A stretch of DNA of 64,000 nucleotides, from NCBI GenBank assembly GCA_012295275.1, contig CM022677.1:19778001-19842000 (forward strand), read 5' to 3'. Positions 369 through 63,807 of the stretch are shown here, one piece after another. Numbering within the stretch: the stretch's first letter is position 1; each line of letters starts with the position of its first letter. The notes beneath the pieces are model-generated. The model was not told the origin of the DNA. It saw nothing but the letters and a program-made list of their open reading frames with translations, and ran no database searches. Origin of the DNA: Chrysomallon squamiferum. Its lineage: Eukaryota; Animalia; Mollusca. The position numbers and the translations under genes were made by a program.

Positions 369-1825
369 CATATTTAACCATGTGATCCGCTGGCAGTGTC
401 CGGCCCACTTTTTGACCCCATATCTGGTGACGCACGGTTTCCACGTCTTTCTCTCGTACTCACCGCACACCATTTTGTGATCGGAGTCACCGGACACAGG
501 ACACACCGAAATTTCGTTTTCGGATTGGATCACCTCACAGTCTGTAAGAAACGAACGTACACCATGTGTATTTGTTTGTTTGTTTGTTTGTTTGTTTGTT
601 TGTTTGTTTGTTTCTTTATTTGTTTGTGTGTTTGTTTATTTGTTTGTTTGTTTGTGTATTTCTTTGTTTCTTGATTTGTTTGTTTGTTTGTTTATTTGTT
701 TGTGTGTTTCTTTGTTTCTTTGTTTCTTTGTGTGTTTGTTTATTTGTTTGTGTGTTTCTTTGTTTTTATTTGTTTGTTTATTTATGTGTTTAGTTATTTA
801 TTTGTTTATTTATTTATTCGTTTATTTATTTAGTATTTGTTTATTTATTTATGTGTTTGTCTGTCTGTTTGTTTGTTTATTTATTTTTTATTTTTTTTAG
901 TGTTTGTTTGTTTGTTGCTTTGTTTGCTTATTTATTTGTTTATTTATTCATTCATTCCATCACTTCATATGGTAATAATTATAATAATAATAATAACAGT
1001 AATAGTAGTAACAGTAATAAAAGTTGGAGAACACTAATAATGATGATAATGATAATAATAATAATAATAATAATAATAATAATAATAATAATAATAATAA
1101 TAATAATAGTAGTAGTAGTAGTAGTAGTAGTAGTAGTAGTAGTAGTACGTGCCTTCAATTCCATACATAGTGACGGACAGTTGCAATATTACTATGGCAA
1201 CCAACTGACAATACAGTGCCTGTAACAAAAATTATGATCACAGTGCTGTCAGAGGCAATTTGTAATCGACAACGTCACAAAATAATCAATAGGAGCATTG
1301 ATGATAATGCTGATATTAATAATATATATAAAAAAGTAATAGTAATAGTAGTGATAATTTTAATAATAGAAATTACAGTAGCAATAGTAACAATGCAAGC
1401 AATAGAAATGCAATAGTAGTAGTAGTTGTAGTAGTACTGGCAGAGTAATAGTATCAGTTGTAGTAGTAGTACTAGCAGAGCAGTGGTAGTTGTAGTAGTA
1501 TGAATAGTAGAAAGAGAATAGTAGTGTTAGTAATAATCAGAGTTGTGAAGTGGTTACAGGATAGTTGTAGTAATTGTAGTAATAGTAGTAGTAGTAGTAG
1601 TAATAGTAGTAGTAGTAATAGTAGTAGTAGTAATAGTAGTAGTAGTAGTAATTGCTGCAGAAACAATGGTAGAAATATAAACTGACAGAAATAATTTAAG
1701 TAATAAACAAAAATGTATACGATATTCAGGTTAAGACAAGAAGAGAGACATCAGCAAAGGAAGAGACAAAGAAATATAAATATTCAAGTGATCAATGAAC
1801 GATGTTCTTTTATGTTTACCTTCAT
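369..1825 (-). CDS. Secreted Cys-module + galectin-like family, copy A (5' part; exons 1-3 at 1825-1820, 1219-1153, 541-369; remainder beyond left edge)
   Basis: ATGAAG|gtaaac; cag|ALYCQLVAIVILQLSVTMYGIE-G|gcacgt (signal-peptide-like, GC donor); cag|DCEVIQSENEISVCPVSGDSDHKMVCGEYERKTWKPCVTRYGVKKWAGHCQRITWLNM|gtaagt. Exon sizes 6/67/173 and phases equal those of copies B and E. Confidence 0.8.
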
Positions 1826-2439
1826 TGCTGTTGTGATTTGTGTGCTGAACGAGTAGGCGAATGCAGAATCTTGAAATGCACGTAGTAGAAATCAGCCTGG
1901 TATTAATACACCGCAACTCCTCCCTAATCAAGCAATGCTATTAAATAATATAAAATTTAAAAAAAATAAAATAAAAAAAATAAAAATAAATAAATTACAT
2001 ATAAAAAGTAAAGTGACTTCGCATTTGCGACGATGAACAGATAATTAATAATCAAAAACGAGAAAAATTTCATCTGATCTGTCAACAGCTGCACAAGTTA
2101 ATATCCTCACAGTTTTACAACAACTACGTGTGCAGCCATGAAAATCAAATAAAAGTGATAGAATACATCAGAAGTATATGAAAATTCCCCCCCCCGCCTA
2201 AGTCCCCCGTCTCTCTCTCTCGGTCTCTGTCTCAGCTGATCCTTAATCAGTGACGATTATCAAGGTATCAGTCAGGTATATGCACATTTAATGATCAAGA
2301 ACGAGAAAAGTTTCATCTGATCTGTCAAACAGCTGAACAAATTAATATCCTCACAGTTTTACAACTACGTGTGCAGTAATGAAAATCAAATAAAGTTGAT
2401 ATAATATATCAGAAATATGTGATGTTACCCTTTACGCAC

Positions 2440-3140
2440 GTCTCTCTCACAACACACACACGTAGACTCAGATGCACATACACAACACACACACGTAGAA
2501 ACAGATACACATACACAACACACACATGTAGACACAGACACACATACACAACACACACACGTAGACACAGACACACATACACAACACACACACGTAGACA
2601 CACATATACACATACACAAGAGACACAGATACACATACACAACACACACATGTAGACACAGATACACATACACAACACACACACGTAGACACAGATATAC
2701 ATACACAACACACACACGTAGTCACACATACACATACACAACACACACACGTAGACACAGATACACATACACAACACACACACGTAGACACAGATACACA
2801 TACACAACACACACACGTAGACACACAGATGCACATACACAACACACACACGTAGAAACAGATACACATACACAACACACACACGTAGACACACAGATAC
2901 ACATACACAACACACACGTACACACACAGATACACATACACAACACACACACGTAGACACACAGATACACATACACAACACACACACGTAGACTCAGATG
3001 CACATACACAACACACACACGTAGACTCAGATGCACATACACAGCACACACACGTAGACACACAGAGACACATACACAACACACACACGTAGAAACAGAT
3101 AACATACACAACACACACACATAGACACACAGAGACACAT
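2440..3140. repeat. ~36-38-bp CA-rich minisatellite (acacacacgtagacacagatacacatacaca)
   Basis: About 18 visible tandem copies; source of the CVCV-type pseudo-ORFs. Confidence 0.9.
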
Positions 3141-3919
3141 ACATACTCATATCGCTACTCGTTCGCTGCTCTGGAAACGAACACATTTGCCAATGTTCAG
3201 TTAACACACTGTGATTAACAGATGCATCGTGACACAAATTATCACACAACAGTCTTGTGCAGAAGATATGAATTAAAGTGACACGGTAATCTCTGGCTAT
3301 TTCATCCAGAAACTTGCCTGTCTGTCAAACACAGGAGGATTTACATAACAGCGACCACATTTTAAACTTAATGGTAAATTTGTCGTTTGACTTCGGCTGT
3401 GCTTTTGCCCTAATCACGTGACCCCCGATTCCCTGAAATCTACGGAACATTGTAATTCTTCATAGGACCACCACACACAACATTTTATATGGCCTTTCAT
3501 GTGTGCATCCTTTTTCGCATTAAAACAATTAAATCTTTGTCTTTGATCACGCATTCTTACCGAATATCACCTTACTTTTTTTTTTTTTTTTTTTTTTTAA
3601 TTGTATATCACTCAGTCCGTAAGTTAAAATAAAAACTACAAGGTAATAAAACGATGATGCGGTGAAACATGAAACCGTTTAACACTTCACGTGTTGAACG
3701 TTCCGAGTCTGGAATTGAAATTAGGTTGTAGAGTTTCTACATCTTGAAATTAATGTGGTGTTAAGTTGTGTGCCTGAAACAATGGTATGTGCGTGACCGT
3801 CAGTTATATCCACAGAAGAATAAAAGAAGAGAATGAGAGAGTGTGAGACACAAACATATAGACAGAAAGAAACAGAAAGAAACTGCCTGATAGAGATTCA
3901 GACACAGATACAGACAAGA

Positions 3920-61965: not shown

Positions 61966-62220
61966 GATCGCATTCGAGACTACATTTGTACAATGTTCTC
62001 GCGTGATGTTATCATGACGTAGTTACTGAAAGATCGCATTCGAGACTACATTTGTACAATATTCTCGCGTGACGTTATTATGACGTAGTTACTGAAAGAT
62101 CGCATTCGAGACTACATTTGTACAATATTCTCGCGTGACGTTATTATGACGTAGTTACTGAAAGATCGCATTCGAGACTACATTTGTACAATGTTGTCGC
62201 GTGACGTTATGATGACGTAT
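61966..62220. repeat. 66-bp tandem repeat x4 (gatcgcattcgagactacatttgtacaatattctcgcgtgacgttattatgacgtagttactgaaa)
   Basis: Period 66 at 61966, 62032, 62098, 62164; shares tgacgt-rich motifs with the upstream regions of B (5730-5900) and F (56080-56240). Confidence 0.9.
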
Positions 62221-63169
62221 TGGTGACGTTGCCATATTTGCACAACATCGCTGCGTTGATCTATCCTGATTTAGTAGTAGAGGTATCCTTGAAAACACAA
62301 AATTATACGTTTTTCACCTTTGTGTAACATAATTCAAGTAAAGCTGCTTTCACGATTTTATTTAGTTATGTGATGCCTGGTGGTTTTTTTTTTTTTTTTT
62401 TTCTGCTTACATTTATTTATTTATTTATTTATTTATTTATTTATTGGTTTATTGGTTTATTTATTTATTTATTTATTTATAAATTCATGTATTTATTTAT
62501 TGGTGGTAATTATTGTTGTGTGTATGTGTGTGTCTAGGTTGCGTGTATGTATGTATGGATGCGTGGATGGATGGATATCAATGTTAGTAGTAACAAAACC
62601 ACTAATACAAAATAATTGCAATAATAATAATGATAATAGTAATGAATATAGTATATTCAACACCGGTGATAATAACAATAATTATAAATAAAACAACAGC
62701 AATATGTACCCAAGTATGTACCTAGCATTTGTGTATCTATGTCTTTCTATATCATTTATTTATCTACTACACCTGTTAATATATACATACATACATATAC
62801 GTATATATATATATGTGTATGAGAGATATATGCATACATAATATATAATATATATATATGTATGTATATGTACACACACACACACACACACAAATACACA
62901 TACATTAATACATACATATATAATTGCAATGTGATGAATATAATAACTATTTTATCGCCATATTTACTGTTCATTGCAACATGTAACTAACTATTCCAGT
63001 GTTAACTTGATCCTGTTGTGAACATCTGCTGTCCGTTCACTTGTATATACACTTTCATGTCATATTTAGTTTGACTGGTTTAATTGGGGCAGTGTTTATA
63101 TGAATTAATATTAATACCTATTATCGTGGATTTCAAACATACCGTACTTACGTTTAATCCGATACCAAA

Positions 63170-63807
63170 ATGAAGGTAAAAGTGCATATTTTTGTATGTA
63201 TGTACACACACACACACACACACACACACATATATATATACGAGAGAGAGAGAGAGAGAGAGAGAGAGAGAGAGAGAGAGAGAGAGAGAGAGAGAGAGAG
63301 AGAGAGAGAGAGAGAGAGAGAGAGAGAGAGAGAGAGAGAGAGAGAGAAAAATATATATACATACATACATACATATATATAAATATTTCTCTATTAATAA
63401 GTTTATTGACCCTCCTTTTACCTGTTGGAAAATCTGTCTCTCGTTTTCTGCTATACTACTTCTAGTATAAATTCTATTATTACAACAAATACTACTACTG
63501 TCACTACTACTACTACTAGTACTGCAACTCTAACAATTAGTACTATTACTAGAACTATTGTTACTTTTGCTGCCACTGCTCGAGCAAAACCTTGTAATTC
63601 CAAAAACGATCCTGTCTTCAATTTTAATCACGAAATGACCTATTATAATTTGTTGTTGTTGTGGTTGTTGTCGTTTTGATCTTTTCACGTAGTCGTTTGT
63701 TACGTCAGAGTCAGTGTAGTCGTCGTAATTGTTGTTACAGATACTGTATTGTCAGTCTGTTGCCATGGTAATATTGGAGATATTCTTCACCGTCTACGGA
63801 TATGAAG
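63170..63807 (+). CDS. Secreted Cys-module + galectin-like family, copy G (exons 1-2 only: 63170-63175, 63741-63807; rest beyond right edge)
   Basis: cgtggatttcaaa...ATGAAG|gtaaaa; cag|ILYCQSVAMVILEIFFTVYGYE-G|gcacgt, 67 nt as in all paralogs. Confidence 0.75.

Follow-up and report, generated by a model that had tools for sequence, protein, structure and literature searches.

The 64-kb window, i.e., the whole stretch of DNA analyzed, raises the question of what a series of similar short exons encodes, from which known fold they may have descended, and what their products might do. The initial annotation read them as seven copies of one gene plan. Seven paralogous loci (A–G) with a common six-exon plan were indeed found, and a search for an eighth copy within the window was negative. 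The galectin-like part was visible in five copies only, because A is represented by exons 1–3 and G by exons 1–2, both extending past the window ends; in the other five, all six exon positions lie inside the window. The loci are as follows:

369..1825, minus strand: copy A, exons 1–3 (1820-1825, 1153-1219, 369-541), remainder outside the window
6414..12994, plus strand: copy B, exons 1–6 (6414-6419, 8373-8439, 9015-9187, 11256-11341, 11630-11831, 12863-12994)
14688..18797, plus strand: copy C, exons 1–6 (14688-14693, 15253-15319, 15758-15921, 17340-17425, 17752-17959, 18678-18797)
22614..26564, minus strand: copy D, exons 1–6 (26559-26564, 25953-26019, 25302-25473, 23869-23954, 23341-23548, 22614-22732)
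29036..33442, minus strand: copy E, exons 1–6 (33437-33442, 32822-32888, 32314-32486, 30471-30556, 29983-30187, 29036-29155)
56821..61712, plus strand: copy F, exons 1–6 (56821-56826, 57536-57602, exon 3 at ~58003-58140, 59962-60043, 60248-60449, 61590-61712)
63170..63807, plus strand: copy G, exons 1–2 (63170-63175, 63741-63807), remainder outside the window

Each locus carries the MK micro-exon (ATG-AAG) and the 67-nt exon 2, as had been claimed. The length of the 4-Cys exon 3, 173 nt in copies A, B, and E, falls to 172 nt in D and 164 nt in C; exon 4 measures 86 nt, except in F (82 nt); exons 5 and 6 span 202–208 nt and 119–132 nt, respectively, and the intron phases across the plan are 0,1,0,2,0. 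Copies of this kind would be generated by local duplication and inversion, some of them then decaying, and the cluster, in what is likely a neomphaline snail, could be described as a tandem gene family under birth-and-death turnover. The span 369–63807 also contains an ILF2-like and a PEMT-like gene, both unrelated to the family, the best match of the latter being from Gigantopelta aegis.

The state of the individual copies was evaluated from splice sites and reading frames. Copy E alone is free of splice-site and codon defects, with an intact 218-codon model in which intron 2 is GC-AG and the remaining splice sites are canonical. Copy A has a GC donor at intron 2 and a fifth Cys in exon 3. 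Copy B gives an open model of 221 codons, conditional on the use of its intron-2 donor, which in B and F is a non-canonical GG and not GC. Alternative GT donors near the GG donor of B were inspected by eye and rejected, as each would either put the model out of frame or remove part of the signal peptide or the first Cys. Copy C has an open frame with a CG acceptor at exon 3 and a weak GC donor at intron 2. Copy D shows two frameshifting 1-nt deletions, one each in exons 3 and 6, and it is possible that these mark a pseudogene or an assembly error, the latter because both lesions lie inside short base runs. In copy F, exon 3 is degenerate with two Cys and the exon-4 acceptor is displaced by 4 nt; skipping exon 3 also leaves the frame open. 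Spliced reads, proposed earlier as a check, were sought for copy E: no splice joint was seen in runs X15, X1, and X2, whose coverage consists of repeats or short bits and leaves absence unproven. Exons 3, 5, and 6 of E were covered, with 1–3 differences, by contigs of the DNA-like run X14, which behaves as DNA from the same or a near-identical genome.

It could be argued that the cluster is mostly decaying, with one or two copies at work (E, perhaps A and G) and B, C, D, and F as pseudogenes. Splice or frame defects occur in four of the five complete copies, no RNA joints were seen with the reads on copy E, and dN/dS is 0.8–1.5 for exons 2 and 4–6 with intervals that include neutrality; values near 1 would reflect relaxed selection if most copies were pseudogenes. 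However, under neutral B/F divergence the chance of the frame staying open is 3.5e-4 for B and 0.0095 for exons 4–6 of F, the 9-nt C/E indels in exon 3 and the length differences of exon 5 keep the frame, and the lesions of D may stem from assembly. General decay is hence considered improbable. Purifying selection acts on exon 3 (C/E dN/dS of 0.37), and dN/dS for exons 4–6 is about 0.4–2.6 per exon. Positive selection was not detected, dN/dS being nowhere significantly above 1 and no pN-pS interval excluding zero upward. Divergence in exon 5 is patchy (C/E, 4/96 versus 33/109 nt, p = 5e-7), and gene conversion could be the cause.

The conserved module at the amino-terminal side of the galectin-like part is illustrated by copy E:

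32314..32486, minus strand: exon 3 of copy E, 4-Cys exon with Cys gaps of 23/10/12 and Sushi-like spacing

Nine columns are invariant in exon 3 of A, B, C, and E, including Trp residues between Cys2 and Cys3 and past Cys4. The Cys gaps in B, C, and E (20–23/10/12) fit loosely, at the short end, the spacing of Sushi/CCP domains (PF00084; ~25–29/8–13/10–17), as gauged from two Sushi-repeat ORFs fetched for comparison. The Sushi-type Trp between Cys3 and Cys4 is absent from the exon 3 sequences checked except in A, and exon 3 scored about 0 bits against the two ORFs. Searches of Pfam, PDB, and ESM Atlas with exon 3 gave no usable match to Sushi or any other family, and its AlphaFold2 model was unusable (pLDDT 38.6). 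A representatives search returned two repeat proteins, which were rejected since the match covered a 28-residue stretch only, and a scan of JGI metagenomes gave 20 pattern matches with none confirmed. The Cys module, possibly Sushi-derived and disulfide-bonded, would form the conserved structural part of the protein.

Galectin descent of exons 4–6, as put forward in the initial annotation, is supported by profile comparison and gene structure. The hhalign comparison of the five-copy alignment with 42 galectin carbohydrate recognition domains (CRDs) gave a score of 26.4 across 54 gapless columns, above all 300 shuffles (150 column shuffles, maximum 21.8; 150 block shuffles, maximum 24.3), and the reversed alignment scored 10.4; the probability was 29% and the N-terminal half gave no local alignment. 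Against the galectin HMM, copy B scored 7.9 bits, exceeded by one of 1000 shuffles, while C, E, and F stayed within their own shuffles. None of the 16 exon peptides matched Pfam above noise (DUF5626 at E 0.07 being a chance match). When longer proteins were searched for homologues with the exon-5 and exon-3 alignments, none of the 881 and 158 candidates, respectively, reached E ≤ 10, and exons 3, 4, 5, and 6 gave nothing below E 0.9 among PDB sequences. The top three ESM Atlas matches were PF00337, with a score of 0.80 that is to be read as a lead only. Structural modeling of exon 5 by itself predicted four beta strands (AlphaFold2, pLDDT 71), in keeping with the proposal, and Foldseek and VIA returned generic beta meanders with no galectin among the matches listed.

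The position of the introns provided a further comparison. The motifs quoted for copy B are present, with phase-2 and phase-0 introns where they had been claimed:

11630..11831, plus strand: exon 5 of copy B, middle exon (S3-F4 type) of the galectin-like domain

Counted from the FPF anchor, the phase-0 intron follows after 20 codons in E and after 21 in the other four copies (B, C, D, F). Of 25 genomic galectin loci picked by hand, 23 (8 of 10 clusters) lose homology at this same codon, which upholds the assignment to the F4 type. In B, C, and E, the phase-2 acceptor precedes the anchor by 47–49 codons as compared with 49–52 in four galectin loci, and the domain length is 136–139 against a galectin median of 139. 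In the cluster, the galectin-like domain is split over three exons, the middle one being of the S3-F4 (or S3-F3) type; these exon types are described in section 12 of PMC10343441. Exons 4–6 might instead encode another ConA-clan or an unrelated beta domain, e.g., Methyltransf_FA (PF12248), its galectin likeness being convergent. PF12248 appears in ESM Atlas at rank 7 (0.75), under the galectin rows and again with no Pfam match, and the modest hhalign probability and the lack of a galectin among the Pfam matches and the fold matches listed point the same way. An intron shared with galectins in position and phase to the codon, a domain of the same length, and a register free of gaps from FPF to F1 argue against such convergence, which we regard as highly unlikely.

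The loss of the sugar-binding motif was confirmed in the five copies bearing galectin-like exons. H-x-N-x-R is absent from exons 4–6 in all five (D on exons 4–5) and Trp from exon 5 in all five, whereas the reference CRDs contain H-x-N-x-R in 35 of 42 and W-x-x-E in 42 of 42, a set biased by the fetching motif. C, D, and E retain an N-x-R and a Glu in uncertain register. Reading this N-x-R as a remnant of H-x-N-x-R was disfavored because compensating indels of ~8 residues would be needed in a length-conserved exon; the merged alignment is ambiguous at this point. The galectin-derived beta-sandwich following the Cys module would therefore lack the galactoside-binding motif.

The signal peptide that had been claimed is likely, as a peak 11-residue hydropathy of 2.3–2.8 was observed inside the first ~20 residues in six of six models tested. 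The hydrophobic N-terminal exon would send the protein through the ER, and the predicted proteins depart from the classical galectin rule of no signal peptide. In PMC10343441, bivalve and deuterostome galectins are described as without a classical signal peptide, with sponge as an exception. The sequons NGT and NES (B), NET (E), and NFT (F) were all found; B has a further NQT, and C has none.

Taken as candidates, ~22-kDa secreted, galectin-derived proteins for variable recognition of microbes or foreign surfaces represent the reading that we tentatively favor, at somewhat less than an even chance. The concave face, released from lactose binding, would vary among copies and bind other glycans or proteins. 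By analogy with related families an immune role may be proposed; contrary to this analogy, the abalone Sushi-galectin proteins came instead from shell matrix. A structural role as a secreted matrix part of mucus, periostracum, shell, or sclerite, the scaffold binding chitin or matrix proteins, was considered. In its favor, Haliotis shell matrix contains proteins that combine a signal peptide with Sushi and galectin domains, and sequons and disulfides fit an extracellular matrix. However, those of abalone have lengths of 1328 and 3093 aa and carry chitin-binding repeats, as against ~220 aa and none in the cluster; the accessible part of the scaly-foot scleritome supplement, which may contain no sequences, holds neither a family motif nor the word "galectin"; and patchy hyper-divergence would fit recognition better. 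The structural role is judged rather unlikely. Nothing in particular supports the venom or gamete recognition named in the initial annotation. Abalone lysin/VERL provide a precedent for fast-evolving secreted reproductive proteins, and gamete recognition, egg-coat, or spermatophore proteins would likewise be small, secreted, fast evolving, and lineage-restricted; with no specific pointer to gonad, this reading is very improbable. A bolder form of the recognition reading, quite doubtful at present, is an antibody-like secreted binder in a vent snail, in which a constant disulfide module would carry a reshuffled face for symbiont recognition or control and the GG-AG intron of B and F would be functional.

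Should the host be a chemosymbiotic vent snail, such a diversifying family of secreted proteins on a galectin scaffold would be a concrete candidate for symbiont recognition. It would also be a natural case of a galectin scaffold that lost its lactose site and, as predicted, came to be secreted. A small, testable splicing oddity is the GG donor in two apparently constrained copies (B and F). In gastropod genomes, immune lectins are counted with the help of Pfam and BLAST; as the cluster escapes both at exon level and is recognizable mainly by intron position, lectin-derived repertoires may be undercounted.

An IgSF domain is about 100 aa long. The stretch that separates the signal exon from the galectin-like part, 57 residues with four Cys, is too short for one, which sets the cluster apart from the Biomphalaria GREPs as had been proposed. 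GREPs (IgSF + galectin VIgLs; PMC9334734) are likewise gastropod chimeras in which a galectin domain follows an N-terminal module, and an immune role has been proposed for them. Canonical bilaterian galectins (PF00337; scallop S3-F4, PMC10343441) have the three-exon domain, intron phases and places, length, and C-terminal hydrophobic register in common with the cluster, which differs by the lack of H-x-N-x-R and Trp, a predicted signal peptide, sequons, and an extra N-terminal Cys exon. Vertebrate GRP/LGALSL, according to the same source, is also a galectin scaffold without galactose binding; these are single CRDs with minor motif changes, whereas the cluster encodes predicted secreted chimeras in a fast-turnover array. 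Similar to the cluster proteins, CLC_3878 and idb_982 of Haliotis laevigata shell matrix (PMC6003135) combine a signal peptide and a galectin domain with a small Cys module, Sushi in their case, but they are the large, multidomain abalone proteins described above. In G. aegis, 7 of 24 galectin-KOG (KOG3587) genes carry Sushi-type NR names (PMC7895826 supplement), and the family is expanded in this peltospirid; the galectin orthogroup, which counts 39 genes in this species as against 9 in C. squamiferum, was interpreted by the source as immune recognition. Such gastropod Sushi-galectin proteins are seen by standard annotation, whereas those of the cluster are missed when single exons are compared with Pfam and have a Cys module that is only Sushi-like. 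With secreted Sushi-galectin proteins in abalone, galectin expansion in Gigantopelta, and non-galactose-binding galectin relatives already known, the novelty attributed to the cluster was overstated, and the abalone shell proteomes and the Sushi-named G. aegis genes suggest that it represents a design already known from gastropods, in a very divergent form.

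The window is AT-rich animal sequence (∼31% GC) with many microsatellites, and its duplicated blocks resolved in a repeat-masked self-comparison into seven paralogous loci, A–G, on both strands. Copies A and G are truncated by the window ends, and no eighth copy was found when the masked 64-kb window was searched with six of the models. The loci follow the exon plan proposed in the initial annotation, namely, an ATG-AAG micro-exon, a hydrophobic exon 2 of 67 nt, an exon 3 of 164–173 nt with four cysteines, and exons 4, 5, and 6 of 82–86, 202–208, and 119–132 nt, with intron phases 0,1,0,2,0. 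Protein identity is 68% for C/E, 53% for B/F, and 27–31% between both groups. The family of seven loci is real. Two other genes are located between copies E and F:

∼36940–47480, − strand: multi-exon DZF-domain gene with Pfam DZF_N matches in two of its exons, arranged head to head with the PEMT-like gene
∼50429–53240, + strand: phosphatidylethanolamine N-methyltransferase (PEMT)-like gene, one exon 67% identical to Gigantopelta aegis PEMT

The DZF-domain gene is presumably ILF2/NF45-like, and the G. aegis match of the PEMT exon was the best of two matches from 10 candidates, which makes a neomphaline gastropod other than G. aegis the likely source of the DNA. A MITE-like 137-bp inverted repeat (49093–49229 vs. 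49439–49575, 96% identity) lies between the two genes. A ∼530-bp piece of the B intron 5 region recurs upstream of B in the opposite orientation at 94% identity (5002–5531 vs. 11855–12392 and 61003–61246), a recent inverted duplication. At 20110–20900 and 33820–34900, close to the termini of the C and E duplication units, a ∼22-bp minisatellite forms arrays that may have served as recombination points in the inverted duplications of C/D/E. Downstream of both C and E lies a duplicated block (19039–19389, + strand; 28443–28796, − strand) containing a 98-codon open stretch with a weak WHAMM-JMY_N match (E 0.011), perhaps a captured gene fragment.

For reference galectins, metagenome contigs were scanned with a motif pattern; this gave 116 loci, with 63 motif-bearing ORFs across the fetched loci, and PF00337 was confirmed in all six of those checked. 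Twenty-five loci were selected as genomic by ORFs breaking off past the motif exon. Homology ended exactly 21 codons past the FPF anchor in 23 of the 25 (8 of the 10 clusters formed at 60% identity), the break coinciding with a phase-0 GT or GC; it continued further in L018 and L043. In B, C, D, and F, the phase-0 intron of the family lies 21 codons past the anchor, with D and F counted separately, and in E it lies 20 codons past it, which supports the proposed galectin scaffold with an F4-type intron. The phase-2 acceptor precedes the anchor by 49–52 codons in four galectin loci vs. 47–49 in B, C, and E. Galectin domains (CRDs) are described as using three exons, with a long S3–F4 exon in scallop galectins (PMC10343441).

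The gene structure is stronger evidence for galectin descent than the profile match. An HMM built from 23 hand-picked full-length domains, extended to 42 unique CRDs, gave B 7.9 bits, a score exceeded by 1 of 1000 shuffles; the scores of C, E, and F fell within those of their own shuffles. Five copies were aligned, omitting exon 6 of D, and compared with the CRD alignment by hhalign. The two matched without gaps over 54 columns that run from the FPF motif to the final strand, with a score of 26.4, a pairwise E of 5.7e-4, and a probability of 29%. None of 150 column shuffles and none of 150 shuffles in six-column blocks reached this score, and the reversed alignment scored 10.4; the N-terminal half gave no local alignment. 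The database and fold searches, which used single-exon queries only, showed no true relative in Pfam (16 exon peptides), a 5.8-billion-protein search, HMMER over 1.84 billion representatives, PDB sequences, or JGI metagenomes. In the AlphaFold2 model, exon 5 forms four beta strands (pLDDT 71), and the Foldseek and VIA matches listed for it were generic beta meanders; the exon-3 model was unusable. In ESM Atlas, PF00337 clusters took ranks 1–3 for B exon 5 (0.80, 0.79, and 0.79; a lead only) and the 10 best named matches all fell in one family or clan; E exon 3 found nothing there. A non-galectin fold of exons 4–6 is very improbable, and taking all evidence together we hold galectin descent with high confidence. 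As initially claimed, the sugar-binding motif is missing: neither H-x-N-x-R nor the exon-5 Trp occurs in any copy tested, and hence the family apparently fails membership in the functional galectin family.

Exon 3 has nine invariant columns in A, B, C, and E and is the only exon with dN below dS (C/E 0.37; the A/E interval likewise below zero). Its Cys gaps (20–23, 10, and 12) are close to those of two Sushi-repeat ORFs; its Trp sits elsewhere than in Sushi, and the profile scored ∼0 bits against these ORFs. A Sushi origin of the module, resting on spacing and on gastropod Sushi-galectin relatives, is an evenly balanced proposition. The hydrophobic N-terminus, disulfide-type cysteines, and sequons point to secretion, in agreement with the earlier prediction. 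Bivalve and deuterostome galectins are reported without a signal peptide, and three sponge ones with one (PMC10343441).

Copy E is intact (218 codons) with a GC-AG intron 2. The intron-2 donor is GC in A, C, D, E, and G, and GG in B (8439/8440), with its open 221-codon frame, and in F (57602/57603). The acceptor before exon 3 of C is CG. Copy D lost one base in each of exons 3 and 6; as both fall in short base runs, these may be assembly errors. In F, exon 3 is degenerate and the exon-4 acceptor is displaced by 4 nt, which preserves the frame whether exon 3 is left out or is spliced at a GT further downstream. Substitution and indel rates were taken from 1,535 aligned non-coding positions of B and F; at these rates, the probability that the frame survives neutrally was 3.5e-4 for B and 0.0095 for F exons 4–6. 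Hence, B and F look constrained despite the GG donor, hinting that their GG-AG intron 2 may be in use; such a site is reported as used in human CPSF3 (PMC4176328). A cluster that is mostly decaying is unlikely. F intron 3 harbors a broken CENP-B N-terminal HTH (59208–59420, + strand, E 9e-7), likely a Tigger/pogo transposon remnant. Contigs of four sequencing runs (among 17) were compared with copy E, and no splice joint was found in any of the four. Contigs of X14, a run behaving as DNA of the same or a near-identical genome, cover E exons 3, 5, and 6 with 1–3 differences; three more fit both flanks of the 3′ part of exon 5 (29989–30122) and differ in between, as would paralogs or alleles, which suggests that one or more E-like copies or alleles exist in addition to C and D.

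The galectin-like exon diverges in patches: among C/D/E its first 96 nt are nearly constant and the remainder differs at 26–32%, and between B and F divergence is greatest in the first part. By colinearity with galectins, the divergent patches would lie largely on the S-strand face. Pooled dN/dS was 0.8 for C/E and 1.5 for B/F, and neutrality falls within both intervals; diversifying selection is suggested. A reproductive role, to which such divergence might also belong, is improbable. A constant module joined to a variable face, in copies that duplicate locally and decay, is the pattern of invertebrate recognition-gene clusters, and on this analogy secreted recognition of microbes is tentatively favored over its four rivals.

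A matrix protein is a weaker possibility; two abalone shell-matrix proteins are described with a signal peptide and Sushi and galectin domains (PMC6003135). The galectin orthogroup is listed with 39 genes in G. aegis and nine in C. squamiferum; of 24 G. aegis genes with the galectin KOG, seven have Sushi-type NR names (PMC7895826). Supplementary Data 1 of PMC11871041, cited in its text for families expanded in C. squamiferum, lists Sushi-named proteins of 212 and 224 aa, possible kin of these genes. The GREPs, IgSF and galectin chimeras of Biomphalaria, are defined in PMC9334734. No paper in the open-access listings searched describes, for these snails, a galectin family that is compact, secreted, and motif-less; subscription papers or supplements may do so. 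The family is most probably galectin-derived, motif-less, and secreted. Of the novelty first claimed, a real family stands, but its design is not new: the family is a new and highly divergent version of one already present in gastropods, as in the Sushi and galectin proteins of abalone and G. aegis.
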